A DNA stretch of 36,637 bases from Anaerolineales bacterium (GTDB taxonomy: Bacteria > Chloroflexota > Anaerolineae > Anaerolineales > UBA11858): assembly GCA_036445875.1 (NCBI GenBank), contig JAZFRV010000227.1, positions 1 through 36,637 on the forward strand, in the 5' to 3' direction. This document shows, piece by piece, positions 13,637-33,215 of the stretch (its first letter is position 1; every line of letters begins with the position of its first letter). The position numbers and the translations under genes were made by a program. The notes under the pieces are model-generated. The model made no database searches, was not told where the DNA came from, and saw nothing but the letters and a program-made list of their open reading frames with translations.

Positions 13637-13742
13637 GTACAGGAAAGAATCGGACTGCAAATTCCTGAATTTTTTAATCATATTTATTGCAGGATGCTCA
13701 TCACATTTCCTTTTTGCCCTGGCAAAGTGGAACCTCTCTGCA

Positions 13743-13751
13743 TGGTATAAT
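13743..13751 (+). promoter_or_regulatory. Extended -10 promoter element (TGGTATAAT) upstream of sucC
   Basis: TGGTATAAT at 13743-13751, 49 nt upstream of the sucC ATG. GGGAG RBS at 13785-13789. No convincing -35 box. Confidence 0.45.
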
Positions 13752-13799
13752 CTCCGCGGTTAAGCTTTTTCCCAGCAGATAATTGGGAGCGGAAAATAT

Positions 13800-14963: not shown

Positions 14964-15824
14964 ATGAGCATCCTTGTTAACAAAAAGACCCGCCTTCTTG
15001 TCCAGGGAATTACTGGTAAGGAGGGTTTATTTCACACCGAAAAGATGATTAATTATGGAACCCGAGTAGTCGCTGGAGTCACACCTGGAAAAGGCGGCGA
15101 ATGGGTAATGAATGGAAAAGTTCCAGTATTCGATTCAGTAAAGATCGCTAAAAATGCCACAGGCGCAAACACATCGGTGATTTTTGTTCCCGCCCGGTTC
15201 GCTGCAGATGCCATATTTGAAGCAGCAGATTCAGGTGTTGAATTAATTATCTGCATCACAGAGGGAGTTCCAGTGCATGATATGATGCGGGTCAGGAATT
15301 ATCTGGATCAGAAGGATGTCCGTCTGATAGGTCCCAACTGTCCCGGGCTGCTTACCCCCTCAGAAGCCAAAGTAGGTATCATTCCCGGAAATATTGCAAT
15401 CCCGGGTAATATTGGTGTTGTGTCCCGGTCAGGCACATTAACTTATGAAATACTATTTGCACTGAAAAATCTCCAGCTGGGTGTGTCCACTTGTGTCGGT
15501 ATTGGAGGAGATCCAATCAACGGAACCAACTTTATTGATACCCTAATGTTGTTCCAGGAAGATCCCGATACTGAAAAAATTGTTATGATTGGCGAAATTG
15601 GCGGAACCGATGAAGAGCAAGCAGCAGAATATATATCCGACCATGTTACAAAACCTGTGGCAGCCTTCATTGCCGGCCGAACTGCCCCTCCCGGAAAACG
15701 GATGGGACACGCAGGAGCTATTGTCCAGGGTGGCACGGGATTGGCAGAAGATAAAATTAAAGCCCTGAAAAAAGCCCGGGTAAAGGTTGCCAAACACCCG
15801 GAAGAAATCCCATCCCTACTGTGA
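14964..15824 (+). CDS. sucD: Succinyl-CoA synthetase alpha subunit
   Basis: 286 aa. [29 protein letters not shown] and the phosphohistidine loop MGHAGAIV. Confidence 0.92.
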
Positions 15825-19752: not shown

Positions 19753-22368
19753 TCAGCGTCTGCGAATCCACCTAACACTATTTGATCGACAACCCGGACA
19801 GGAACGCTCAGAATCAGATTTGTATATTCCATTCCAGGTATCTTCACAGACAAGGCATAGAAAATCCGTCGGTTGATTTTCATCCTTATTCCTTGGATTA
19901 CGAGGTCCGGGCACCTTGGCTTCCATCAATAACGTATGGGTATCCTGGATCATATCAAGGCTTACGGAAAGGCGTTTTTCTTCTACCTGTTTCATGATAT
20001 GCTGCCAACGCCCTCCTTCAGCCGCTGAACACCATTCCAGCACCAATCTGGTGGGATCCAACCCAACCTTTTCCATGCCATCCCACAATCCATCCACTCG
20101 CCGGGTAGTGCTGCGATTGGCATCAATGTAATGGCAGTCCACATAATGGCAGCCGGATACCAATACAACTGGTGCTCCTTTTTTGAAGGCATACCAGACA
20201 AATTCCGGGCTAACCCTGCCGGAACACATGGTCCGGATAATATTGGCATGGGGAGGATATTCCATACGCCCCACGCCTGCGGTATCTGCACCAGCGTAGG
20301 AACACCAATTACAGGCAAACGTCACAATCGATTCTTGTGGATTTTCATCCAGCATAGCGTCTATTTGGGCGTAAATAGCCTGGTCAGAGAAATGACGCAT
20401 TTCGATGGACCCATATTTACATTCCGCAGCACATGTTCCGCAGCCAGTGCAGGCTGCGGTGATAACCTCAGCTGCCTGCCCTTTTTCCCAAATGATTGCA
20501 CTAAATGGACAAACATCGGCGCATAAACCACAAAGCTTGCACAGCCCTTCATCAATTACCGCGGTGATGGCATCCACAGAGAATTGATCTTGATTTAGCA
20601 AGATAGAAGCTCTTGAAGCAGCAGCGCTGGCCTGGGTGACACTTCCGCGGACATCCTTAGGGGATTCCACTCCTCCGGCTATAAATACACCCTTTGTGGG
20701 GGTATCAACTGGGCGCAGCTTAGGATGCGCTTCCCTTAAAAATCCACTCGGGGATTTAGAGAGACTGACCATTTGGCGGATGGTCTCTGTATTATCTGCT
20801 GGAACAGCTCCAACAGCCAATACCAGTAAATCAAAATTGTGTTGCTCCAGGCGGTTGCTGGTAGTGTTTTCCACTGTCAGCTTAAGATCTCCCGTGACAG
20901 GATCTTCCACTACATCACCGGGTAAACCACGGATATATGAAACTCCATTGGATTTACTTCGCATTAACAACTCCTCAAAACCTTTACCAAAGGCGCGAAG
21001 ATCTGTATAAAACACTGTGGACTCCACTTCCGGGTGGGCGTCATTTAAGTATTGGGTTGTTTTAATGGTGTTCATGCAGCAAAAATTTGAACAATAGGGG
21101 TTGCCGCGTTCCGGATCCTGGGTTCTGGACCCTACACATTGAATGAAACCAATCTTATTGGGAAAAGCCAGATCACTCGGCCGGCTCAGTTTCCCTTCCA
21201 AAGGACCACTGGTACATATTAACCGCTCGAACTCCAAACTGGTCATCACATTAGCGTAGTTTTTATATCCATATTCATCCAATGGAGTTGGATCATAAAG
21301 GTCCATGCCCGTCGCAACAATAACCACACCCACTTCTACATTTAATATTTCATCCTGCATCGTAAAATCAATACAGGCTTTTTCACAGGCTTCAATACAT
21401 TTCCCACAAGCAATCGGATTCTGCCCCAGGCATTCGTTTGCATTCACGACATATGCGGAAGGAACTGCTTGAGGAAAAGACAGGAAAATCGCCCGGCGGC
21501 TTCCTAATCCAACCTGGTATTTATCCGGGATCACGATCGGGCAGACTTCTGCGCAATCTCCACAGGATGTACACTGGGTTTCATCTACATAACGGGCTTT
21601 CTTGCGAATCCTGGCTTTAAAGTTGCCCACATAACCAGAGATATCTTCTACCTCTGAATGTGTTAGTAATTTGATGTTGGGATGTCGACCGACATCCATC
21701 ATTTTGGGTCCGAGTATTCAAATACTACATTCGATATCCGGATATACTTTATCCAGCTGAGCCATGATGCCGCCAATAGAAGGCTCACGTTCCACAAGGT
21801 AGACTTGATGCCCGGAATCTGCCAGATCGAGAGCCGCTTGAATTCCCGCTACTCCTCCTCCGATAACCAAGGCAGCATCAGTTACTTGAATCTGCTCTTC
21901 ATCTTGGGGAATCAACCACCGGGATCTCGCAACTGCAACCTTAACAGTTTTTTTGGCTTTTTCAGTAGCTGCCTTTTTATCACTGGCAGTCACCCAGGAG
22001 CAGTGTTCCCTGATATTTGCCATCTCCAGCAGATATGGATTTAACCCTGCCCCTTCAATACATTTGCGAAAGATCACCTCATAAGAGGTTGGGGAACAAG
22101 ACGCGACCACTATCCGGTTTAGATTAAAATCGGTTATGGCTTTTTGAATTTCCTGTTGGCCCGGTTCTGCACAAGTATATTTGTTCCGAATAGCCACAAT
22201 AACGTCGGGTAAACCCGCTGCATACTCCCTGACAGCCTCAGTGTCAACCGTTCCAGCAATATTTGACCCACAATCACAAACAAAAACCCCAATGCGTAAA
22301 TTGTTGTCTGGCAATGGTATCCTCCTATTCATTTTTTGTTTGATTTCAATAACCTGTATTTCATTCAT
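19753..22368 (-). CDS. hdrA: Heterodisulfide reductase subunit A-like flavoprotein, predicted selenoprotein (TGA at 21718-21720 read as Sec217), fused C-terminally to an MvhD domain and a zinc ribbon; 871 aa
   Basis: Track ORFs 21718-22368 and 19753-21702 are in the same frame, separated by TGA plus five sense codons. The joined sequence reads ...GGGVAGIQAALDLA...GGIMAQLDKVYPDIECSI-U-ILGPKMMDVGRHPNIKLL..., which is continuous with the conserved HdrA FAD-domain block. The downstream ATG has no RBS. Also present: the N-terminal Cys domain VFVCDCGSNI, an inserted ferredoxin CTSCGDCAEVCP, C-terminal 2x[4Fe-4S] CKLCGLCADVCP/CTGCGTCAAEC, MvhD-like FACNWCSYAGADTAG...CSGRV...VSGCHYVDCHY, and the tail CLVC-x17-CPGC. 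Confidence 0.8.
21672..21701 (-). promoter_or_regulatory. SECIS-like stem-loop downstream of the in-frame TGA of hdrA
   Basis: mRNA sequence: UGA AUACUCGGACCCAAAA UGAUG GAUGUCG GU CGACAUC CCAA CAUCA. The upper stem G(G)AUGUCG/CGACAUC(C) (21680-21697) has 7-8 perfect bp with a GGUC/GU apical loop. A lower 5-bp stem UGAUG/CAUCA adds a 4-nt bulge. The hairpin starts about 20 nt after the UGA. Confidence 0.55.
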
Positions 22369-23513
22369 ATTTGGTCAGCAATAATTGTAGTAAGATCACG
22401 AATATTAATTTGAATATCCTCCCCCAGGATGGGATCATTCTGGGCACATTTAAGATGGATCTGACATTTGATACAAGCGGTAATTAATAAATCAGCCCCG
22501 GAAGATTTTGCCTCTTCCAAGCGCTCCACTTGAGCTTTTTTATTCACCTGTCCACATGAAGTCCAGCAGCTAGTTCCACAGCACAGACTGGATTTACGAT
22601 TGTGGGTCATCTCCTTTACTTTGAAACCCAATCCCCTAATTAACTCACGAGGTGATTGATATACCCCGGAAAATCGTCCCAATCGGCAAGGATCCTGATA
22701 GGTAACCGGTTTGTTCTTATTAGCAGAATTATCGGGGAGGGTTTCCAACAAATCTGTATCTACCAATAATTCTGCCAGATGCAAAACCTCCATCCCGGAA
22801 TTCCCGATTATTTCAGGATAAGTGTGTTTTAAGGTCCAGGCACATTCAGGACAAGTAGTAACTATTCGTTTGGCTCCGGTAGACATAAGGTTCAATAAAT
22901 TCGTTTCCCCCAATTTACGAAAGATATTCATATCACCTTGCCAATATTGATCATGACCACAACAGCGCTCATCCTTTAATACTATGGGTTCAATACCCAG
23001 ATAGTTGAGAATTTTAAGGGCTGCCCTGGTAATGTCTATCCCCTCAATATCCAATTGGCTGAAGGCAGCATCATAATACGGCAAACAACCGGTAAAGAAT
23101 ACCGTATCAGAGTCTTCAGAGACCTGGAGATCATCTTCAATCCAGTCCAGCCGGTTCTGTTTCAAATCAGGATCAGACATCATTCGGCTCCAGGTTTGCA
23201 TCATCCCACTGTGGGTGCAATTGGCAGACTGATTCCGATCTCTGGCTCCTTCCCGGATATTCTGGATAAAATCAGAAAAAGATACCTGGGAGGGACATAT
23301 CTCAGTGCAGTAATTACAGGTTAAGCAAGACCAGAGAAGTGGGTCGTTTAATATGGCTTCTTCACCTGAATTGATCGCCATCTCAACCAGCAGCCGGGGA
23401 CTGGTATAAGGTTCAACAATATGCCTGGTAATAGGACAGACTGAACTGCATTTACCACAATCCAGGCAAAGCCAAACCCGGTTCGATTGGATGATTTCTT
23501 TTAATCCATTCAT
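22365..23513 (-). CDS. Fused HdrC-HdrB-like subunit (2x[4Fe-4S] ferredoxin domain plus two CCG domains)
   Basis: 382 aa. CLDCGKCSSVCP and CLTCNYCTEICP (HdrC-like). Two complete CCG signatures: C-x40-CCG-x35-CPEC and C-x34-CCG-x34-CIKC. ATGA overlaps with both neighbouring genes. Confidence 0.8.
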   Translation of the reverse strand: MNGLKEIIQSNRVWLCLDCGKCSSVCPITRHIVEPYTSPRLLVEMAINSGEEAILNDPLLWSCLTCNYCTEICPSQVSFSDFIQNIREGARDRNQSANCTHSGMMQTWSRMMSDPDLKQNRLDWIEDDLQVSEDSDTVFFTGCLPYYDAAFSQLDIEGIDITRAALKILNYLGIEPIVLKDERCCGHDQYWQGDMNIFRKLGETNLLNLMSTGAKRIVTTCPECAWTLKHTYPEIIGNSGMEVLHLAELLVDTDLLETLPDNSANKNKPVTYQDPCRLGRFSGVYQSPRELIRGLGFKVKEMTHNRKSSLCCGTSCWTSCGQVNKKAQVERLEEAKSSGADLLITACIKCQIHLKCAQNDPILGEDIQINIRDLTTIIADQI

Positions 23514-23917
23514 TGATTTCCTAGAATCTCATCAATCCCATTTGTAAAAATTTGGATAATCTCTCTAAAGGATTTGCCGTCCCTAGTATCTACAAAATCC
23601 AGTTGGAATTGATTATCGTTGTAACCCAACAAGTTCAGAAGATTTCTGGTTTCCGGAACAATCTCGGCAATCTGTTTGTTCCCGGTTTCATATTGACACT
23701 CACCTTGGCTACAACCAAGTAATAATACGCCGTTGGCACCATTCTCAAATGCTCTCAAAATTATTCCCGGTGTGATTCGGCCCAGACAAGCAATCCGGAT
23801 TGGGTATACAGTGGGAGAATAAGGAATCTTCTCAGCTCCAGCTGCCTCAAGACCACTGTAAGCATTCCAATTACAGGTAAATAAAATAATCTTTGAAATC
23901 TTCTCTTCTGTTTTCAT
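23510..23917 (-). CDS. mvhD: MvhD/FlpD-like [2Fe-2S] electron-transfer subunit
   Basis: 135 aa. ILFTCNWNAYSGLEAAG...IRIACLGRITPGIILRAFENGANGVLLLGCSQGECQYETGN matches the methyl-viologen-reducing hydrogenase delta subunit family. Confidence 0.8.
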   Translation of the reverse strand: MKTEEKISKIILFTCNWNAYSGLEAAGAEKIPYSPTVYPIRIACLGRITPGIILRAFENGANGVLLLGCSQGECQYETGNKQIAEIVPETRNLLNLLGYNDNQFQLDFVDTRDGKSFREIIQIFTNGIDEILGNQ

Positions 23918-23918
23918 A

Positions 23919-26900
23919 TTAAGCCAGAATTGTTTTTATCATTTCCTCCAACTGCAGGTCTGGGGAGTGTCCAGGGGTAATCGCTCCGGAAGGGCAAATT
24001 GCTGCGCAGATGCCGCAGGCAAGGCATAATTTTGGATCAATGAAAGAATATCTGCCAGAGGCCTCTTCTATGAGGTCCGGAATACCAAATCCACAAACCT
24101 CAACACATGTTCCGCAAGCCCGGCAGCGGGATTTATCAACCTCAGCTGCAGACAATTCTGTTTTGTTATTAATCTTGTTTATCCAGGCAGCAATCCGGGC
24201 AGCCCCGGACATTCCTGAAATCTCGGCATTCACATCAGGTGGGAACATGAGTACTCCAAAATCCAGTGAATTGATCCGTGAGTCTACTAATTGAAAAAGC
24301 GAGCGACCATCAGGCATCTGAAGCACATCACACAAAAGCTTTTGCTCCTTTTTGGTTCCCGGAGTAATAACCAGCAGATCCGTCAATAATTCAGAGCTTT
24401 CAAATGTCAGGATAACATGGCCGCCCTTTCGAAGGATCTTTTTCGGAATCTCACCTATCATTTCTGTTTCTATGCCCAACTCGATCAGAGAGGACTTGCA
24501 AATTTCCCCAGCTGGTCCACTTCCGACAATGAGAACTTTATTGGATTCATAAGTGTGTGATTGCTCTCCAGTTTTTCTAGATCGGAGGCGTGACAGGGCA
24601 GTTATAATCAGGATTTTTGCTATTTCAGTAGCCTTATCCGGGAGATCTTGATGTACCCAGGCACATTGTTCACGGATATTTACAAATTCGATGGGAATGC
24701 TGCTCTTTAAGGATGAAAAAATTCCCAGGTTGTCTTTGCAGCGTAACCGCTGATAAGTACAGCTGAAACAGATCTGATCCAGGGAGCAGCAGGTGCAGGC
24801 TGCAAGAATTACCTTATCGAGGTCCTCTACCTGGATGATATCCATAATTTCACCTGCAGCATCTTCAGAACAGGAGAATTGCAGTTCCTGAGCATGGACT
24901 ATTCCAGACCAGTTCACTGCCTCTGCGCTGAGGGTATTTGTATCGACAATATCGGAGATCTCACCTCCACACTGGCAGAGGAACAATCCGATTCTATCCT
25001 CGGCCTTCTCCAGTAAAGCTAGTTGAGGGATATTCTGAATAGTAGGAATCAGGTTTAATTTTAAATCCTTCATCACCTGGTACGCGGCAGCCGATCCCGT
25101 TTCCAGGTCCTCCCCGGCAACTTGGTATCCCTCAACACCATCAAATTCAATCGGGATATCGTCTGCAAATATCACTGCACCAGCGTCTATAAACGATCTT
25201 GATGAAGTTTGATTATGGATTATCGCACCCGGCTCACAAACCTCCACACAGGCCATACATTGGCTGCAGGGACCACAAATTAAACAGCGCCCAGCTTCCT
25301 GTAAGGCAGCTTCTTCACCGAGAGTCAAACCAACTTCATAAAAATTATTTTTCCGATCCTTTACTGGTAAGTGAGTTATCGCAGCCCTATTAAATCTAAC
25401 CTGATCTCTTTGATCAAGCCTGTTTCGCATTTCTTTCTGGCTTAGAATTACTTCCGAAGGTCCACTCTCCGTGATCTCGAGTAATTTCCCCTTCAGATAA
25501 TTATCTATGGACCGGGCAGCATGATGCCCTTCCCCGACTGCATCAACAACAAAAAAGGTAGTTCCGCGACGAACATCCCCCGCAGTAAATACACCCTCCA
25601 TCGATGTCATCATCCGGGAATCAGCCCGAATTCCTTCCGGAGAAAGTACGGTAATCCGGTCATTTTTCGGTAAAAATCCGAAATCCGGCCTTTGTCCAAC
25701 AGCCCAAATCACCAGGTCCCCGGGAATAATATGTTCAGTTCCGGGAAGCTCACTGAATTGGCGTTTTCCATCAATTACCTCTCCTATTTCCGCATCCAAA
25801 CATTCCACCCCGGAAATATCACGTTGGTCGAGGACTATTTTCTTAAATACCTTCCCCCGGATGATTTCGATTCCCTCTTCTTCAGCATCCAGGATTTCAT
25901 TAAACGATGCCCTCATCCCCCTGCATACCAATCGGACTTCTGGAGTACCCAATCGAATTGCTGCCCGGGCAGCATCCATGGCAACATCACCACCACCCAG
26001 GACAATGACTTTTCTGCCGCTGAGATCAATTTTTTCCCCCAGACAAACCTTTTTCAGAAACTCTAGACTGAGCCAGTTCTGGGGATGATCAGCATTTTCA
26101 ATAGGAATTTTCACTGCCTCGTGGGCACCTGTAGCTATCAGAACTGCGTCATATCCATTACTTAAAAGCCCGGGAATATCATCCACCCAGGTATTCAGTT
26201 TAAGGTCAACACCCTCCGAAAGGATTTGTTGAATTTCCCAATCCAATTGATCATATGGTAAACGATGAGGAGGAATGCCAACCCGCATCATGCCGCCAGC
26301 TGTAGAATTAGCATCAAAAACTGTAACCGCATGCCCGCTGTGGATCAAATCTCGGGCGGCAGTTAACCCTGCCGGGCCTGCCCCGATAATAGCTACTTTT
26401 TTTCCCGAAGAGGGACGCTTATCATCTGAAGTGCTATCCAAAGAAAGCTTTGGATCCTCTGATTGGTCATCTTTTCGCCTGTAAGCCCAATCCGCCACAT
26501 ACCGTTTCAAAGCCATCAGGTTTACCGCTTCATCCAATTGCGCACGTGAGCAGGCTTCTTCACAATAATGATTGCACACACGTCCACAGACGGATGGAAA
26601 CGGCAGTGCCGAGTGGATCAGATCATATGCTTCCTGGTACCGTTCCTGGGCGATCAATGCCACATAACCCTGAACGTGAATACCTGCTGGACAGGCATAT
26701 GTGCAGGGAGAAACTCCTGCTTTTTCTATCACTGCACAACCAGGCTGTCCTTCCAGAAAAATGGCTTTTCGATCAGATCCGGGAACTATCACCGGGCAGA
26801 TCTCGATACAATCACCACAAGCAGTGCATTTCGAGAGATCTACATATCGGGGATACTGCTGCAGAACAGCCTGAAAGATCCCGTTCACTTTAGTTAATTT

Positions 26901-27116
26901 CTGCAGCGATGTATTTGTCCAGGGAGTAATATTCGGATGTTTTAGAATTTCCAGCAATCTTTGGTTTAATAAATAATCCGGGAAGAGGTGCTCTCCGTTT
27001 ATCCCCATAAACGGACTGGATTCAATGACGTTCACCTTAATCCCTGAAAAGGCAAGGTCCAATGCAGCTTGTAATCCTGCCTGGCTGCTGCCAATGATGA
27101 GCACTTCTTTAACCAT
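23919..27116 (-). CDS. Large HdrA-like / NfnB(GltD)-like mosaic flavo-iron-sulfur protein (HdrL-like), 1065 aa
   Basis: aa 1-130: HdrA-type Rossmann start VLIIGSSQAGLQAALDLA plus CTACGDCIEICP. aa ~136-545: GltD/NfnB-like module (CTYACPAG...CGRVCNHYCEEAC, VAIIGAGPAGLTAARDL, VIVLGGGDVAMDAARAA, VFTAGDVRRG). aa 611-630: CLICGPCSQCMACVEVCEPG. aa 708-822: HdrA N-domain-like (LFLCQCGGEI...FVNIREQCAWV). aa 861-: VLIVGSGPAGE. aa 997-1045: CRACGTCVEVC/CLACGICAAICP. Confidence 0.75.
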   Translation of the reverse strand: MVKEVLIIGSSQAGLQAALDLAFSGIKVNVIESSPFMGINGEHLFPDYLLNQRLLEILKHPNITPWTNTSLQKLTKVNGIFQAVLQQYPRYVDLSKCTACGDCIEICPVIVPGSDRKAIFLEGQPGCAVIEKAGVSPCTYACPAGIHVQGYVALIAQERYQEAYDLIHSALPFPSVCGRVCNHYCEEACSRAQLDEAVNLMALKRYVADWAYRRKDDQSEDPKLSLDSTSDDKRPSSGKKVAIIGAGPAGLTAARDLIHSGHAVTVFDANSTAGGMMRVGIPPHRLPYDQLDWEIQQILSEGVDLKLNTWVDDIPGLLSNGYDAVLIATGAHEAVKIPIENADHPQNWLSLEFLKKVCLGEKIDLSGRKVIVLGGGDVAMDAARAAIRLGTPEVRLVCRGMRASFNEILDAEEEGIEIIRGKVFKKIVLDQRDISGVECLDAEIGEVIDGKRQFSELPGTEHIIPGDLVIWAVGQRPDFGFLPKNDRITVLSPEGIRADSRMMTSMEGVFTAGDVRRGTTFFVVDAVGEGHHAARSIDNYLKGKLLEITESGPSEVILSQKEMRNRLDQRDQVRFNRAAITHLPVKDRKNNFYEVGLTLGEEAALQEAGRCLICGPCSQCMACVEVCEPGAIIHNQTSSRSFIDAGAVIFADDIPIEFDGVEGYQVAGEDLETGSAAAYQVMKDLKLNLIPTIQNIPQLALLEKAEDRIGLFLCQCGGEISDIVDTNTLSAEAVNWSGIVHAQELQFSCSEDAAGEIMDIIQVEDLDKVILAACTCCSLDQICFSCTYQRLRCKDNLGIFSSLKSSIPIEFVNIREQCAWVHQDLPDKATEIAKILIITALSRLRSRKTGEQSHTYESNKVLIVGSGPAGEICKSSLIELGIETEMIGEIPKKILRKGGHVILTFESSELLTDLLVITPGTKKEQKLLCDVLQMPDGRSLFQLVDSRINSLDFGVLMFPPDVNAEISGMSGAARIAAWINKINNKTELSAAEVDKSRCRACGTCVEVCGFGIPDLIEEASGRYSFIDPKLCLACGICAAICPSGAITPGHSPDLQLEEMIKTILA

Positions 27117-27133: not shown

Positions 27134-28696
27134 CTATTCATCCAGCTCCAATCCTCTTTTGTAGCCGGCTTCAAATACTTCCAAATTTAAACTAACTGTT
27201 TTAGCAGGTACAGATTCTGCAATTGCTTCCTGCATAGCTTCTTTATCTACTATTCGTTCCACCGCGGTCCAAAAACCCAGCATAGCTGTATTTGCGGCCC
27301 TGTTGTTGCCAGCATCCTTGGCAATTTTTGTAGCAGAAATTCCAAAGGTTTTAATATCATCCCGGTGATCTTCCGGGAGGGTCACTAATTCATCATCTAT
27401 CAACAGGACTCCATCCTGCTTAAGATCTGCAATATATTTTTCGTATGCCCCCTGGGACATCATGATCATGCTGGTTGGCTGAGTCAGATGAGGATGGTGG
27501 ATAGGTTTACTGGAAATCACCACTTGTGATCCTGCCGCTCCCCCTCTTGCTTCCGGTCCATAACTTTGAGTAAAACACGCCTCCAGATTGTTATAAACAG
27601 AAGCTGCCATACCAATAATCTTGCCTGCGCTCATAATGCCCTGACCCCCAAAACCACCCAGCTGAATTTCAGTTCGGGACACTTTCTCTTTTTTTGGTGG
27701 TAATTTTTTCCGTTTATCAAGAGCGTCTTTTTCACCCTGCCAGTATTTTTCAGCCAGATCTTTTCGCTGATTAATAGCCTCTTTAAAATCTGGCCTAGAC
27801 TCCTGCAGGAATTCACCTTCTACGATTTCTATCATTTCTCCGGACTCATTTACTTTAACGTGAGCATCTTTGGGATGAATTCCGTGTTCTGTCCGTCCTA
27901 CTTTCTGGTAATGTTTCATAACCTCCAAACCGCGCCGTTGGAGGTTTTCCGGATCCAATCCCTTCCCTTCTGGATTCCAACGGGCATAAGCAGTTGAACA
28001 AGGAGCGATAATTTCCACAAAACTGAAGCCGGAATGGGTTAACGCTTTCCTCAATGTCCAATCCAATTGACGGGCATGGAGCGTTGTCCAGCGGGCGACA
28101 AAGGATGCCCCACTGGCTGCGGCCAGATAAGGCAAGTTAAAAGGGAATTCATAATTTCCATATTGAGCAGTGACCGCCCGGGCTTCATGGGGTGTTGTTG
28201 GACCCACCTGGCCACCAGTCATACCGTAATTAAAATTGTTCACACAAACTACCGTGATACTTAGATTTCTCCTGGCAGCATGGATCAAGTGATTTCCTCC
28301 AATACCTGCCATATCTCCATCTCCGGATATGACGATTACCTTCAACTCCGGATTGGCGATTTTCAGACCGGTAGCAAAAGGAATTGCCCTGCCGTGAGTT
28401 GTGTGGAAGGAATCCAACCTGACATAACCAGCAATCCTGCCTGTGCAACCAATACCGGATACAACAGCAACTTTATCCAGATCCCATCCCTGATTTTTCT
28501 CCAGCCATTGTAAGGAGCTGATAAAGGAAGTTAAAGCAGTTCCCAAACCACAGCCCTGGCACCAGATATGGGGAAGTCTTTCTCCACGCAGTAAATCATC
28601 CATCGGGTGCAATCCGGTTTCCCAATCACTGTCAGCCGGTGTATCATAATTCATAATCCGCAACCGTTCACTACGTTCCATTTCATCAGTTGTCAT
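27134..28696 (-). CDS. 2-oxoacid:ferredoxin oxidoreductase beta (TPP-binding) subunit fused to the gamma subunit
   Basis: 520 aa. Beta-subunit motifs WCQGCGLGT, SGIGCTGR, ISGDGDMAGIGGNH. A Lys-rich linker DKRKKLPPKKEKV follows. Then the gamma-subunit motifs IQLGGFGGQGIMSAGKI...GPEARGGAAGS. Confidence 0.8.
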   Translation of the reverse strand: MTTDEMERSERLRIMNYDTPADSDWETGLHPMDDLLRGERLPHIWCQGCGLGTALTSFISSLQWLEKNQGWDLDKVAVVSGIGCTGRIAGYVRLDSFHTTHGRAIPFATGLKIANPELKVIVISGDGDMAGIGGNHLIHAARRNLSITVVCVNNFNYGMTGGQVGPTTPHEARAVTAQYGNYEFPFNLPYLAAASGASFVARWTTLHARQLDWTLRKALTHSGFSFVEIIAPCSTAYARWNPEGKGLDPENLQRRGLEVMKHYQKVGRTEHGIHPKDAHVKVNESGEMIEIVEGEFLQESRPDFKEAINQRKDLAEKYWQGEKDALDKRKKLPPKKEKVSRTEIQLGGFGGQGIMSAGKIIGMAASVYNNLEACFTQSYGPEARGGAAGSQVVISSKPIHHPHLTQPTSMIMMSQGAYEKYIADLKQDGVLLIDDELVTLPEDHRDDIKTFGISATKIAKDAGNNRAANTAMLGFWTAVERIVDKEAMQEAIAESVPAKTVSLNLEVFEAGYKRGLELDE

Positions 28697-28740
28697 AAAA
28701 TTTTCTCCACATTTCCACCATAAAATCCCATCGATTGGAT

Positions 28741-29931
28741 TCAGGTCTTCTGGGGGACTGCTGCAGCTTTCCTGATCGCATTTAAGACATCCTCGGGATC
28801 CAGAATATCACCCCCGGGTTTATGAACTCCGAATACCTGTGCCTGCCCGGCAGCACTTCGTTCCACCTCGCGGACAATCTGCCCCATATTAATTTCCGGC
28901 ACTACAAATGCGCTGACCTTTTTGGCTAGTTTTGAGATGGTATCTTCCGGAAAAGGCCAAACAGTGATTAACCGGAGATAACCAACCTTAATGCCTTCTT
29001 TTCTAGCCTGCTCAATCGGCCAGAGAGAGGTTCTGGCTGAGATACCATAGGAAATTACAACTACCTCGGCATTCCTAAGTTTGTCGGTTTCTACTTCAAT
29101 TATTTCTTTCCTATTGGCATTGATTTTATCCATCAAGCGGGTGACATTCCACTGATTTGCTTCAGCGTTCATAGCGGGATAACCACGCTCGTCGTGTGTC
29201 AAACCAGTAACATGAATGCGGTAACCATCCCCGGCTTTCACCATGGGAGATATATGTTTTGGATCACTTGCAGGACTATCCCTGAATATTCTGAAATGGT
29301 CCGGCTCTAGATCTCCTTTATGAACTAGCGGTCGGTTGATGATTTCTATTTCTTCAACAGGCGGGATGACAACTTTTTCTGTCATGTGACCAACTTCTGC
29401 ATCAGTCATGACCAGAACGGGTGTCCTGTATTTCTCAGATAGATTAAAAGCCCGGATAGTCAGGTCAAAAAGTTCCTGAGGGGAGCTGGGGCAGAGAGCA
29501 ATAATTTCATAATCACCGTGAGAACCCCATCTAGCCTGCATCATATCCTGCTGCCCGACCAGTGTTGGTAAACCGGTAGATGGTCCTCCCCGTTGGACAT
29601 TCACTATCACACAGGGGGTTTCCAGCATTATTCCAAGACCAAGATTCTCCATCATCAATGAAAACCCAGGACCGCTGGTTGCTGTCATTGATTTTTCGCC
29701 TGCCCAGGAAGCGCCCAGGATAGCATTCATGGATGCCAACTCATCTTCCATCTGGATAAAATTTCCATTCACCTGAGGAAGCCGAACAGACATTCTTTCT
29801 GCAATTTCCGTTGCCGGCGTAATCGGGTATCCAGCAAAAAATCGACAGCCAGCCAGGATCGCTCCTTCCGCACAGGCATGATCTCCCAACATAAAATGTT
29901 CTCCGCTAAGTCTGCCTTTTTCTTTATTCAT
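28741..29931 (-). CDS. 2-oxoacid:ferredoxin oxidoreductase alpha subunit
   Basis: GDHACAEGAILAGCRFFAGYPITPATEI...TSGPGFSLM...QRGGPSTGLPT. I moved the start to Met20 of the track ORF (ATG at 29931). It has a GGAG RBS and an 8-nt overlap (ATGAATAA) with the delta subunit stop. Confidence 0.85.
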   Translation of the reverse strand: MNKEKGRLSGEHFMLGDHACAEGAILAGCRFFAGYPITPATEIAERMSVRLPQVNGNFIQMEDELASMNAILGASWAGEKSMTATSGPGFSLMMENLGLGIMLETPCVIVNVQRGGPSTGLPTLVGQQDMMQARWGSHGDYEIIALCPSSPQELFDLTIRAFNLSEKYRTPVLVMTDAEVGHMTEKVVIPPVEEIEIINRPLVHKGDLEPDHFRIFRDSPASDPKHISPMVKAGDGYRIHVTGLTHDERGYPAMNAEANQWNVTRLMDKINANRKEIIEVETDKLRNAEVVVISYGISARTSLWPIEQARKEGIKVGYLRLITVWPFPEDTISKLAKKVSAFVVPEINMGQIVREVERSAAGQAQVFGVHKPGGDILDPEDVLNAIRKAAAVPQKT

Positions 29932-30235
29932 CCATACTCCCCTGGCGGTGAATTGGTATGACTCTTTCAGGCGAATGTTTTCCACCATCTTCTATATATA
30001 TTGCAAAATCAGGACACAAGAGTGTACATAAACCACAATTAATACATTGAGTACCAGGAATAATTTCCGGAGGATGATACCCTTTGGCATTTGTACGTTT
30101 AGAAATCTCTAGAATTTCCTGGGGACAGAATTCAATGCAAAAACCGCACCCTTTACACCGGTCATCGACGATATGAACGATACCGTGTGTAATAAGAATG
30201 CGGTCCCTGTCAAGTGGTTGTCTCCAAAGAGTCAT
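29924..30235 (-). CDS. 2-oxoacid:ferredoxin oxidoreductase delta subunit (2x[4Fe-4S] ferredoxin)
   Basis: 103 aa. CKGCGFCIEFCP and CINCGLCTLLCP. GGAGG RBS directly upstream. Its position ahead of the alpha subunit is typical of four-subunit OFORs. Confidence 0.8.
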   Translation of the reverse strand: MTLWRQPLDRDRILITHGIVHIVDDRCKGCGFCIEFCPQEILEISKRTNAKGYHPPEIIPGTQCINCGLCTLLCPDFAIYIEDGGKHSPERVIPIHRQGSMDE

Positions 30236-30366
30236 AGCTCCTCCCTGGTAAGTTCAATAACCAACAACCAATAAAGTTTAATCAATCTATCAGATGCAAA
30301 TCTATTAATATGTTTTCGAATATTCTCAATAAAATGCGCTGCATTAACAACCAAATCTGATTTTGG

Positions 30367-31398
30367 TTAGAACATCAGATTATTTATCTCCTCCAGTGAT
30401 TTTGGATCCGGGCGTAATTTTTCATTCGGCAAACGATTCAGGGGTGTATCTGGTAAATCATACAGGTCAAAAAGGGATTTTTGTTTCGGATTGATATATA
30501 TTAATCCGGTAATTAACTCGTTTCTATCGTTGGCTTCTTCCAGCATCTGGAGAGCATTTGCTCTATCAGTTGGTTCATAATCATGGGCAAGTTTTTTAAG
30601 GATGATATGGGTACCATCGTAGAGCGGTACTTCCAATGCTTCGCCTTTTTCATACTGAACCTTAATTGCACGAACAGGCGGGACAAAAGATAACTCATGC
30701 AGTGCAACCTCATGAGATTTGCCCCAAGCATAGGAATGGAAAGAATCATCCTGGTTGTTAAAAGTCACACAAGGACTGATCACATCGATGACTGCAATTC
30801 CGCGATGATGAATTCCTGCTTTTATGAGTGCCTTCAATTGCTGGGGATCCCCGGAAAATGTTCGAGCCACAAATGATGCCCGCCCGGCGATGGCTTCCCA
30901 AACAATATCTACCGGCACATATCGGTTCTGGCCCTGTTTTTTGAGCGCTAACCCCTGTTCCGCAGTAGCTGAAAACTGGCCCTTCGTTAAACCATAAACC
31001 CCATTATTGGCTACGATATAGAGAAATGGCAAATTTCGGCGTGTTACATGTTTAAACTGACCCATCCCAATACTCGCAGTATCTCCATCACCACTCACTC
31101 CGATTCCAATCAGGGATGTATCTCCAAACAAGGCGCCGGTAGCAAGGGATGGCATACGCCCATGTAAACCATTAAATCCAAACGCACGATTCATAAAATA
31201 GGTCGGTGCTTTGCTTGAACAACCAATCCCGCTAACTTTAATCAATCTTTCCGGCGGGATATTCAATTCATAACAGGCAGAGATAATCTGACCAACAATA
31301 GCGTTATGGCCGCAACCCAAGCACAAGGTGGTTTGTTTTCCCTTGTAATCTTCTTTGGATAATCCAATTTCATTCAACTTGACCGTTTTCTCAGCCAT
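30367..31398 (-). CDS. korB: 2-oxoglutarate/2-oxoacid:ferredoxin oxidoreductase beta subunit (two-subunit KorAB type)
   Basis: TLCLGCGHNAI, SGIGCSSK, GVSGDGDTASIGMGQF. I moved the start to Met14 (ATG at 31398), with a TAATG overlap with korA and a GGAG RBS. Confidence 0.8.
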   Translation of the reverse strand: MAEKTVKLNEIGLSKEDYKGKQTTLCLGCGHNAIVGQIISACYELNIPPERLIKVSGIGCSSKAPTYFMNRAFGFNGLHGRMPSLATGALFGDTSLIGIGVSGDGDTASIGMGQFKHVTRRNLPFLYIVANNGVYGLTKGQFSATAEQGLALKKQGQNRYVPVDIVWEAIAGRASFVARTFSGDPQQLKALIKAGIHHRGIAVIDVISPCVTFNNQDDSFHSYAWGKSHEVALHELSFVPPVRAIKVQYEKGEALEVPLYDGTHIILKKLAHDYEPTDRANALQMLEEANDRNELITGLIYINPKQKSLFDLYDLPDTPLNRLPNEKLRPDPKSLEEINNLMF

Positions 31399-33215
31399 TA
31401 AGATTTCTCCTCTTCCATCACTGCTGCTTTGATCCAATCTGCACTCAGGGGCATACCATCAATATGCGATACGGATACCAGGTCAGGTGCGCTATCAGGC
31501 AGTTCTAAAGAAAGAATACTGTGCATTTGTCCATCCCGGTTATTTTCAACCACATAGATTCGCTTATACTCCCGGATGAAATCCAATACTTCTGCTGCAA
31601 CAGGTAGCGCGCGCACTCGCAAATAATCCAGTGTCAATCCCTCATCCTGTAATGAATCACAGGCTTCCCTCACCGCAGAATCTGTAGATCCAAAGGCAAT
31701 AACCCCAGACTTAGCACCGGAACGGGTAGTAATTTCCGGTTTTGGCAGGATCGCTCTGGATGATTCTATCTTTCTATTAATTCGATCCAGGTTTTCTTCC
31801 CATTCTTCAGGTTTTTCGCTGTAATTTGCAAAATCATCATGTCCTGTACCCCGGGCATAATAGGCACTCCTGGGATGCTGATTTCCCGGTACTGTTCGAT
31901 AAGGGATATTGTCTCCATCAAGATCAAGATACCTGCCCCACTTATCCTTTATCTTTTCCAGATCCTCTTCCCAGAGGATCTTGCCCCGGTCAATGGGCTC
32001 ATCCGGGTACTCAAATGGCGGTGTCATCCATTGATTTAGACCCAAATCTAAATCAGAAAGCACAAATATCGGCGTTTGCAGCTTTTCAGCCAGATCGAGG
32101 GCTTTCCAACCAAACTCAAAACACTCTTTAACTGTACCGGGAATAAGCACTACGTGTCTAGTATCTCCCTGGCCAAGGTAATACGTTTGGTTAACGTCAC
32201 CCTGTGCTGTCCGGGTTGGCAGCCCGGTACTAGGTCCCACCCGCTGAATTACCCAAATCACAACGGGTATTTCCACAAAATATGCCAGGCTTGCATATTC
32301 ACTCATCAAGCTCAATCCGGGACCGGAGGTAGCGGTCATTGCTCGTAATCCTGCCCAACCTGCCCCAACCACCATACCAATCGCAGCCAATTCATCCTCA
32401 GCCTGAATGATTGCATAAGTATCCTTACCAGTTTCGGGATCTTTTCTCAAGCCTGGAGCAAATTCCAGAATTGCCTCAGGTAAACTTGTTGCCGGAGTAA
32501 TTGGATACCAGGAAACGAAATGCATGCCCCCGTAGATAGTGCCCAATCCTCCAGCGGTATTGCCGTTTGCCAGATTAAACCCTTCAGTTAGATTCAGAGG
32601 TTGAACCTGAAAAGGTGAAACAATCTCCAGGTTGTTTTCAGCCCAATGGAAAGAATCATGGATCACAGACAAATTAAAATCGATAGGACCCTTTTTCCCT
32701 TTAAAGTGAAAATCAAGGGCGCTTTCGATAGTTTCCAGCTGGACCTTTAACAGGAAAGCCAATACTCCAACATACACCATATTAGCAACATAATCCCTCA
32801 GTTCACGGGGAGGTTTGGCTTCTTTTACGATGGATTTTACCGGCATGGGGCAGAGAATCAGGTCTTCCCGATGAATAGGTTCCTTAATATGATCTGCATA
32901 AAGAAAAATACCCCCTGAAACCAGGTCGGTCAGATCATCCCCAAAAGTCTTTGGATTCATTGCGACTGCAATTTCTGTCTTTTGACTGCGTCCCAAATAA
33001 CCGGCTTGGCTGACTCTTATTTTATACCAGGTAGGTAAACCTTGAATATTTGATGGAAAAATATTCTTTCCAGACACAGGTATCCCCATTTTAAAGATTG
33101 ATCTTATCAATGTTAAATTTGCTGTCTGACTGCCAGACCCATTTATGGTAGCGATATTGATTGAAAATTCATTCACTACCTTCTGTGTTTGCAATTTTAA
33201 CTGTGTTTTTGCCAT
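31398..33215 (-). CDS. korA: 2-oxoglutarate/2-oxoacid:ferredoxin oxidoreductase alpha subunit (gamma-alpha fused, KorA type)
   Basis: 605 aa. N-terminal gamma-like domain INIATINGSGSQTANLTL, then the alpha core WYPITPATSL...TSGPGLSLM...QRVGPSTGLPT. AGGAG RBS upstream. Confidence 0.8.
   Translation of the reverse strand: MAKTQLKLQTQKVVNEFSINIATINGSGSQTANLTLIRSIFKMGIPVSGKNIFPSNIQGLPTWYKIRVSQAGYLGRSQKTEIAVAMNPKTFGDDLTDLVSGGIFLYADHIKEPIHREDLILCPMPVKSIVKEAKPPRELRDYVANMVYVGVLAFLLKVQLETIESALDFHFKGKKGPIDFNLSVIHDSFHWAENNLEIVSPFQVQPLNLTEGFNLANGNTAGGLGTIYGGMHFVSWYPITPATSLPEAILEFAPGLRKDPETGKDTYAIIQAEDELAAIGMVVGAGWAGLRAMTATSGPGLSLMSEYASLAYFVEIPVVIWVIQRVGPSTGLPTRTAQGDVNQTYYLGQGDTRHVVLIPGTVKECFEFGWKALDLAEKLQTPIFVLSDLDLGLNQWMTPPFEYPDEPIDRGKILWEEDLEKIKDKWGRYLDLDGDNIPYRTVPGNQHPRSAYYARGTGHDDFANYSEKPEEWEENLDRINRKIESSRAILPKPEITTRSGAKSGVIAFGSTDSAVREACDSLQDEGLTLDYLRVRALPVAAEVLDFIREYKRIYVVENNRDGQMHSILSLELPDSAPDLVSVSHIDGMPLSADWIKAAVMEEEKS

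Follow-up and report, generated by a model that had tools for sequence, protein, structure and literature searches.

The locus and its in-frame TGA

The minus strand of contig JAZFRV010000227.1, a stretch of 36,637 nucleotides from an Anaerolineales bacterium that we analyzed as a whole and refer to as the window, carries two consecutive open reading frames (ORFs) that share one frame: one of 216 residues at 21718-22368 and one of 649 residues at 19753-21702. They meet at a TGA codon (21720 to 21718), which we analyzed as a predicted selenocysteine (Sec) codon within a single hdrA2-type gene. On re-reading, the minus-strand sequence quoted in the initial annotation for 21672-21759 and the common frame of the two pieces matched exactly; the codons around the stop are GAA TGT AGT ATT TGA ATA CTC GGA CCC AAA ATG ATG. 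Reading through the stop from 22368 to 19753 yields 871 residues with one internal stop, no frameshifts and no further stops, so that open frames of 216 and 654 codons are joined by the TGA into one HdrA-MvhD fusion of the HdrA2 type. From its translation and from Pfam, PDB and NCBIfam comparisons, the product joins an HdrA part to an MvhD domain and ends in a zinc-ribbon-like Cys4 tail.

According to sequence, alignment and conservation, the UGA (21718-21720) is residue 217 of this product, the equivalent of Cys/Sec197 of methanogen HdrA. With the preceding cysteine it would form the redox motif Cys214-Ser-Ile-Sec217 (21718-21729), of the CxxU type given for selenoprotein HdrA (PMC9312934). 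Slightly downstream lies an internal methionine codon (21700-21702, in PKMMDVG), at which gene finders start a separate protein of 649 residues, as seen in the ORF list and in database proteins.

A six-frame scan of the window for stops with at least 80 open codons on both flanks listed two TGAs, that of hdrA (218 and 654 open codons on its flanks) and the stop of sucD (15822-15824). The hdrA TGA is the only one of the two without a separate gene start after it and is therefore not a chance juxtaposition of two genes. We also considered a reassignment of the genetic code and rejected it: TGA terminates 11 of the 28 long ORFs in the window, and since it is an ordinary stop in these, the codon is not globally reassigned.

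Identity of the protein and of the interrupted column

Domain searches were run on the joined protein with a cysteine placed at the stop. Pfam returned flavin adenine dinucleotide (FAD)/NAD-binding and ferredoxin (Fer4) domains as well as an FlpD/MvhD domain (PF02662, residues 681-798, E-value 2e-41). Residues 25-676 align end to end with the HdrA chains of 8RVU, 5ODC and 7BKB, which are crystal or cryo-electron microscopy (cryo-EM) structures, with E-values of 1e-183 to 1e-222; the alignment comprises the complete domain set of HdrA, namely the N-terminal cluster domain, the thioredoxin-reductase-like FAD domain and the inserted and C-terminal ferredoxin domains. The NCBIfam model for HdrA2 (NF040770) matches residues 25-803 in a single stretch across the TGA, at 1084.4 bits compared to a curated cut-off of 1100, with cysteine standing in for Sec.

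Within a gapless segment of the structure-based alignment, residue 217 corresponds to Cys197 of Methanothermococcus thermolithotrophicus HdrA (5ODC_A), CSIC facing CSI-TGA, which bears out the proposal that the TGA occupies the second cysteine of the CSxC motif. The same column holds cysteine in full-length HdrA2 proteins of Chloroflexota and Dehalococcoidia that are 60-62% identical to the joined protein (CSICVLGPKMMDVGRHP). The initial annotation had further described this residue as the active-site cysteine next to the bifurcating FAD. The cysteine column stands, but the role assigned to it was imprecise, as the literature gives either a cluster ligand or a relay between FAD and cluster: in one paper, residue 197 coordinates the [4Fe-4S] cluster in the N-terminal part of the other HdrA protomer (PMC9012536), and in the cryo-EM map of Methanococcus maripaludis the density of Sec197 is continuous with a cysteine, which was read there as a selenenylsulfide that serves as relay between cluster A3 and FAD (PMC13518236).

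The C-terminal tail of about 60 residues (CLVC...CPGC, window 19753-19900) is zinc-ribbon-like and occurs in the subfamily of the window protein, recognizable by the motif VYPDIECSIU, and also in one Cys-type homolog (P0067). It is absent from Sec forms with the motif TYPTMDCSIU, whose downstream ORFs have about 615-620 residues.

Conservation of the TGA and selection on both halves

The closest database homologs (74-95% identity) are nearly all 647-657 residues long and represent the C-terminal piece, beginning with MMDVG; the few with a named source come from metagenome-assembled genomes (MAGs) of Anaerolineales or Chloroflexota. Homologs of 60-62% identity are full-length proteins of 805-865 residues with a cysteine at the position of the stop, and the two methionines are internal to them.

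We examined the codon itself in relatives found by several routes. In five related MAGs, four from Anaerolineales and one labeled only as Chloroflexota, which we located through peptide patterns far from the site, the codon is TGA in all five. The same is true for all three further relatives traced from protein hits (L129-L133), a route that is blind to the type of stop codon. In metagenomes, we searched with the pattern C-S-I-[TGN]-[I/V]-L-G-P-K-M-M-D, which permits TGA, TGT, TGC and TGG alike, and obtained at least 120 stretches; among the 120 matches listed, the codon was TGA in 100, TGT in 15, TGC in 5 and TGG in none. Overall, 106 of 126 motif-matched sequences have TGA. Wherever the contig permits, the metagenome matches have an open frame that extends about 200 codons to the 5' side of the TGN codon and about 600-660 codons to its 3' side. 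The orthologs that the initial annotation had proposed to inspect for TGA, TGY or decay thus carry TGA in every relative from the MAG scan and the protein tracing, and none of the genes is decayed.

Relative to three MAGs of about 88% identity, the ratio of nonsynonymous to synonymous substitution rates (dN/dS) is 0.016-0.022 in the 150 codons preceding the TGA and about 0.05 in the part that follows, with dS above 1. Both halves are under strong purifying selection and neither is decaying.

The codon following the UGA (window 21715-21717) encodes isoleucine (ATH) in 94 of 94 distinct TGA forms, but valine (GTN) in 17 of 18 Cys forms. As the next codon of TGA forms is always ATH, the base after UGA is always A, which could reflect what recoding demands of the UGA context or a structural adaptation of the protein to Sec. 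Three TGA-form homologs (L019, L094, L127) have a short frame of 57-85 codons before the Sec codon and 926-960 codons after it; they share the hairpin described below and are basal in a rough tree.

A hairpin downstream of the TGA

Folding, RNAalifold and covariation identified a hairpin of the bacterial selenocysteine insertion sequence (SECIS) type at 21680-21697 on the minus strand. It spans nucleotides +24 to +41, counted from the U of the UGA, lies within the codons for M-D-V-G-R-H-P, and consists of a 7-bp stem (GGAUGUC/GACAUCC) closed by the apical loop GGUC (21687-21690). The loop begins at +31, leaving 27 nucleotides between it and the UGA, and this spacing falls inside the range of 16-37 nucleotides from UGA to loop used by bSECISearch. 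A fold of the 76-nucleotide region from the single sequence is not significant alone (z = −0.22); the hairpin is convincing only through comparative analysis.

For 97 distinct 66-nucleotide TGA sequences, RNAalifold recovered exactly the 7-bp helix in the consensus without guidance, and 99.7% of the pair cells are paired. Pair 29-36 covaries in this set, being U-A (GTC...CGA) in 65 sequences, C-G (GCC/GCG...CGG) in 22 and U-G in 10. The observed covariation was reached by none of 500 shuffles, and all slid registers drop to 19-56% pairing. The wobble bases in the hairpin are frozen: across 94 distinct 60-nucleotide TGA sequences, GAT and CAT are each found in 94, GGT in 90, and GTC or GCC in 93. 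Neighboring glycine, proline and lysine codons of TGA forms use every synonymous codon.

In contrast, the 18 distinct homologs with a Cys codon encode the same peptide, MD(V/A)GRHP, with free wobbles (GTG, GGN and CGN/CGY; GAC and CAC occur). In these, 69% of the cells are paired and the loops are variable, and the mean hairpin energy is −6.6 kcal/mol, compared to −10.9 kcal/mol in TGA forms (Mann-Whitney p = 1e-11). The hairpin is kept only with TGA forms and is SECIS-like.

For comparison we used the SECIS of Escherichia coli fdhF, whose sequence was confirmed in 5,419 genomes of E. coli, where it is identical (100%) and annotated as fdhF, and then folded. Both hairpins follow immediately 3' of the UGA inside the ORF and have an identical apical GGUC loop, of which G23 and U24 contact SelB in fdhF. 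Below the hairpin here, no lower helix is conserved. An extended lower stem (UGAU/AUCA), which appears in the fold of the window's own sequence, was rejected as unsupported by the 97-sequence consensus.

Selenocysteine machinery in relatives

Evidence for the decoding machinery comes from a related locus. A 30-kb contig (Ga0315298_1002637, L108) carries a TGA-form hdrA together with a tRNA-Sec with anticodon TCA (13664-13760, ARAGORN), which scores 70.2 bits against Rfam RF01852. This tRNA lies about 10 kb from hdrA and adjoins a carboxyltransferase gene near the end of the contig, with neither selA nor selB adjacent. A regular-expression search of the six-frame translations of 128 fetched loci for SelD (GxGCGxK) and SelA (SGDKxxGGPQ) found neither, which is a weak test given the short flanks of these loci. 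In the literature, SelB and formate dehydrogenases of the Sec type are reported from single-cell genomes of Anaerolineales (PMC4959059), and Chloroflexi are named among the phyla that use Sec (PMC8318568). From these relatives and reports, we infer that the host possesses the Sec machinery.

Interpretation and alternative explanations

We put the probability at roughly 93% that both ORFs belong to a single gene, which encodes an HdrA2-type flavoprotein with selenocysteine in an Anaerolineales-like (Chloroflexota) bacterium. All refuting tests suggested in the initial annotation that we ran favored Sec. This assignment, made from sequence data and already proposed in the initial annotation, draws its support from the cysteine column, the conservation of the TGA, the selection on both halves, the hairpin specific to TGA forms and the tRNA-Sec on the contig of a relative. 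During translation, the GGAUGUC-GGUC-GACAUCC hairpin would be bound by SelB carrying Sec-tRNA(Sec), and the UGA in the A site of the ribosome would then receive Sec from SelB instead of being read by release factor 2. Sec would thereby occupy residue 217, in the motif Cys214-x-x-Sec217 within the thioredoxin-reductase-like FAD domain. If methanogen HdrA is a guide, Sec217 may coordinate the [4Fe-4S] cluster at the N-terminus of the partner protomer or, alternatively, may form a reversible selenenylsulfide with Cys214 that relays electrons between FAD and cluster.

Several observations weigh against a selenoprotein. In the window, no tRNA of any kind, tRNA-Sec included, was found by a tRNA search, and none of selA, selB and selD by Pfam searches of all major ORFs; the HdrA encoded alongside the tRNA-Sec in the relative is only about 68% identical to that of the window. 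Covariation in the hairpin is confined to one pair, the other pairs being invariant, partly because of coding constraints. Compared to fdhF, the loop begins at +31 rather than +22, that is 9 nucleotides further from the UGA, and the stem is a perfect 7-bp helix without a bulged U like U17 of fdhF. Finally, no Rfam family matches the hairpin, and a search of the SECIS region with E-values up to 10 gave only chance matches to AniS and NRON; as Rfam apparently contains no model for such a hairpin, we gave this missing match no weight. Across the whole window, no Rfam family matched at gathering thresholds.

In one alternative, the gene would be genuinely split, with translation stopping at the TGA and restarting at the ATG 15 nucleotides downstream, and polypeptides of 216 and 649 residues assembling non-covalently without any selenium. 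Public annotations do give proteins of 198-201 and 647-657 residues, and the arrangement is conserved, which by itself does not decide against a functional split. Yet a split at this point would remove precisely the equivalent of the conserved Cys197 and, as the initial annotation had argued, cut the FAD domain in two. Also as previously noted, the internal ATG lacks a Shine-Dalgarno sequence; reading the sequence preceding it directly, we found no AGGAGG-like motif. Moreover, all eight relatives from stop-blind routes have TGA as the stop, which is never shifted, overlapped or out of frame, and a split would leave unexplained why synonymous sites are frozen and U-A and C-G pairs covary in the GGUC hairpin of TGA forms only. 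We therefore consider a split gene very improbable.

Alternatively, the UGA might be read through without Sec, either by suppression with near-cognate tRNA-Trp or tRNA-Cys, or by insertion of cysteine via the Sec machinery at low selenium, leaving cysteine or tryptophan at residue 217. Sequence data do not tell which amino acid is inserted, and the Sec machinery can indeed deliver cysteine, via thiophosphate, under selenium limitation. However, the hairpin has a SelB-type GGUC loop and is kept only with TGA, a tRNA-Sec is present on the contig of a relative, and a lineage in need of cysteine alone should have fixed TGY, as happened in one nested clade. Such a read-through has, in our estimate, a very small chance of being correct.

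A pseudogene, which the initial annotation had raised as an alternative, or a sequencing or assembly error in this genome, for either of which a one-base change from TGT or TGC would suffice, is effectively refuted by the occurrence of the same TGA in more than 100 independent assemblies and by dN/dS values of about 0.02-0.05 on both sides at dS above 1, with neither frameshifts nor extra stops.

Sec and Cys forms in the HdrA2 family

We considered how Sec and Cys forms are distributed, using a rough neighbor-joining tree of the 450 residues after the codon, computed for motif-matching sequences only and rooted on a deltaproteobacterial Cys homolog. All 14 Cys forms fall into one clade that is nested among Sec forms, while 65 of the 72 Sec forms constitute one all-Sec clade; Fitch parsimony requires two changes of state. 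The pattern hints at an old Sec in the HdrA2 family and at a single origin of Cys. It is conceivable, with the odds somewhat against it, that Sec at HdrA residue 197 is ancestral and dominant across a large, environmentally abundant radiation of Anaerolineales-type HdrA2 proteins, with Cys as a single derived clade. If so, a central, 2-oxoacid-linked, electron-bifurcating ferredoxin/NAD(P)H metabolism of sediment and subsurface Chloroflexota would depend on selenium. The family would then also provide Sec and Cys forms that are paired by nature and closely matched, including an 18-nucleotide minimal SECIS in a fixed peptide, which could help in weighing the role of Sec197 as cluster ligand against that as selenenylsulfide relay.

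Gene neighborhood

In our window, hdrA is the last gene of a minus-strand string. Directly before it, with a stop codon overlapping the hdrA start, lies the gene of an HdrD/HdrBC-like subunit (22365-23513, 382 residues) with a 4Fe-4S dicluster domain and two CCG domains, as judged by Pfam and NCBIfam. It is preceded by a stand-alone MvhD (FlpD) subunit (23510-23917, Pfam PF02662) and by a flavo-iron-sulfur protein of 1065 residues (23919-27116), in which Pfam and NCBIfam identify a GltD/NfnB-like NAD(P)H module, a region resembling the N-terminal cluster domain of HdrA, and ferredoxin domains. The string begins with a 2-oxoacid:ferredoxin oxidoreductase (OFOR) set (27134-30235; Pfam, NCBIfam), in the order delta ferredoxin (29924-30235), alpha (28741-29988) and beta-gamma fusion (27134-28696). 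This set is the second of two different ones that stand in tandem directly upstream of the hdr-like genes (27134-33215, minus strand), the first comprising a gamma-alpha fusion and a beta subunit at 30367-33215.

The second OFOR set is conserved with hdrA in relatives, as are the CCG-domain subunit next to hdrA and the 1065-residue protein. The related loci L130-L132 have the same gene order, with the homolog of the 1065-residue protein and the beta-gamma gene fragmented in L130. In locus L129, two extra genes are inserted, and the locus is cut inside the OFOR beta-gamma gene, of which only the end is shown.

From their domain content, the Sec-containing HdrA-MvhD protein, the HdrBC-like CCG protein, MvhD and the GltD-like module probably form a flavin-based electron-bifurcating or -confurcating complex, which would be co-transcribed with the 2-oxoacid:ferredoxin oxidoreductase. 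The operon context suggests that electrons are exchanged among ferredoxin, NAD(P)H and a disulfide-type acceptor. In the 1065-residue protein, the GltD/NfnB-like module covers residues 133-645 and the HdrA-like cluster region residues 708-889, and the protein matches the NCBIfam family NF045663, 'diclust_near_Sec'. It may supply an extra N-terminal cluster of the HdrA type that pairs with residue 217.

In the L130 contig (ERZ25039603 contig_12783, 262 kb), synteny with the window extends to either side of hdrA, with shared genes for LysM, polyprenyl synthase, FMN_dh, sucCD, ferric reductase, Mo-oxidoreductase and a PMT_2/NHL protein. The homolog of the 1065-residue protein is broken into three pieces there, and polyprenyl synthase and OFOR beta-gamma into two each. 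Unlike the clean in-frame TGA of hdrA, these fragments are probably due to indel errors in the assembly.

Relation to known selenoproteins and to current annotation

HdrA is a recognized CxxU selenoprotein family in archaea, Deltaproteobacteria and Clostridia and has been a textbook prokaryotic one since 2005-2006 (PMC1794560, PMC9312934); 16 bacterial Sec-HdrAs from the latter two groups were cataloged in 2006 (PMC1794560). The precedent cited in the initial annotation, Sec in HdrA of Methanococcales and in bacterial surveys, is accordingly well documented (PMC13518236, PMC9312934, PMC1794560). We found no report of Sec-HdrA in Chloroflexota or Anaerolineae in a full-text literature search, outside of which lie most papers in subscription journals, for example large selenoproteome surveys. 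Since selenium use in this family is established, the case, though solid, is an ordinary one and adds no new concept: HdrA has long been on record as a CxxU selenoprotein, and earlier work had already noted that Anaerolineales use Sec.

The VhuD-associated HdrA of Methanococcales (M. maripaludis and M. jannaschii, Sec197) has the same fold, domain order, CxxU motif and residue position. It differs in that its archaeal SECIS lies in an untranslated region and is served by archaeal factors (PMC9312934), whereas the window has a bacterial-type hairpin in the coding sequence 3' of the UGA. Here the host is a Chloroflexota bacterium without a context of methanogenesis, and OFOR and a GltD-like module take the place of Vhu hydrogenase or Fwd as partners.

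A further known group comprises the bacterial Sec-HdrAs, such as those of Syntrophobacter fumaroxidans and Moorella thermoacetica, which have Sec and for which a bacterial-type SECIS was analyzed downstream of the UGA (PMC1794560). Those of Deltaproteobacteria and Clostridia likewise occur in operons with MvhD/FrhD-like and GlpC/HdrD-like CCG proteins (PMC1794560). They belong to other phyla, however, and the sole deltaproteobacterial homolog that we fetched (L006) is 42% identical and has Cys. In the window, moreover, MvhD and the CCG protein are not selenoproteins, and the operon is linked to 2-oxoacid:ferredoxin oxidoreductase instead of hydrogenase.

The HdrA-MvhD fusion is shared with HdrA2 of Methanosarcina and with the Cys-type HdrA2 proteins of Dehalococcoidia and Chloroflexota, of which the Chloroflexota Cys forms are 60-62% identical to the window protein. 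Where the latter would have Sec followed by isoleucine and carries the additional C-terminal CxxC...CxxC tail, Cys-type proteins have Cys (TGT/TGC) followed by valine and lack the hairpin.

What makes this case worthwhile is the correction of a systematic misannotation, together with a SECIS dataset that is both natural and clean. With about 100 naturally occurring Sec variants and 20 Cys variants of the same peptide, the dataset demonstrates a minimal bacterial SECIS unusually cleanly, and programs that predict selenoproteins in Chloroflexota could be trained on it. Practically all public annotations of these MAGs split the hdrA2 gene into two ORFs, and reconstructions of Anaerolineales pathways consequently miss both an intact HdrA2 and a selenium requirement. 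The N-terminal piece is annotated as a small FAD protein of about 200 residues, and C-terminal fragments of 647-652 residues (P0002, P0044, P0046, P0031) are named 'hydrogenase iron-sulfur subunit' or 'Electron transport complex subunit RsxB', a misnaming that is systematic because the Sec codon is not recognized.

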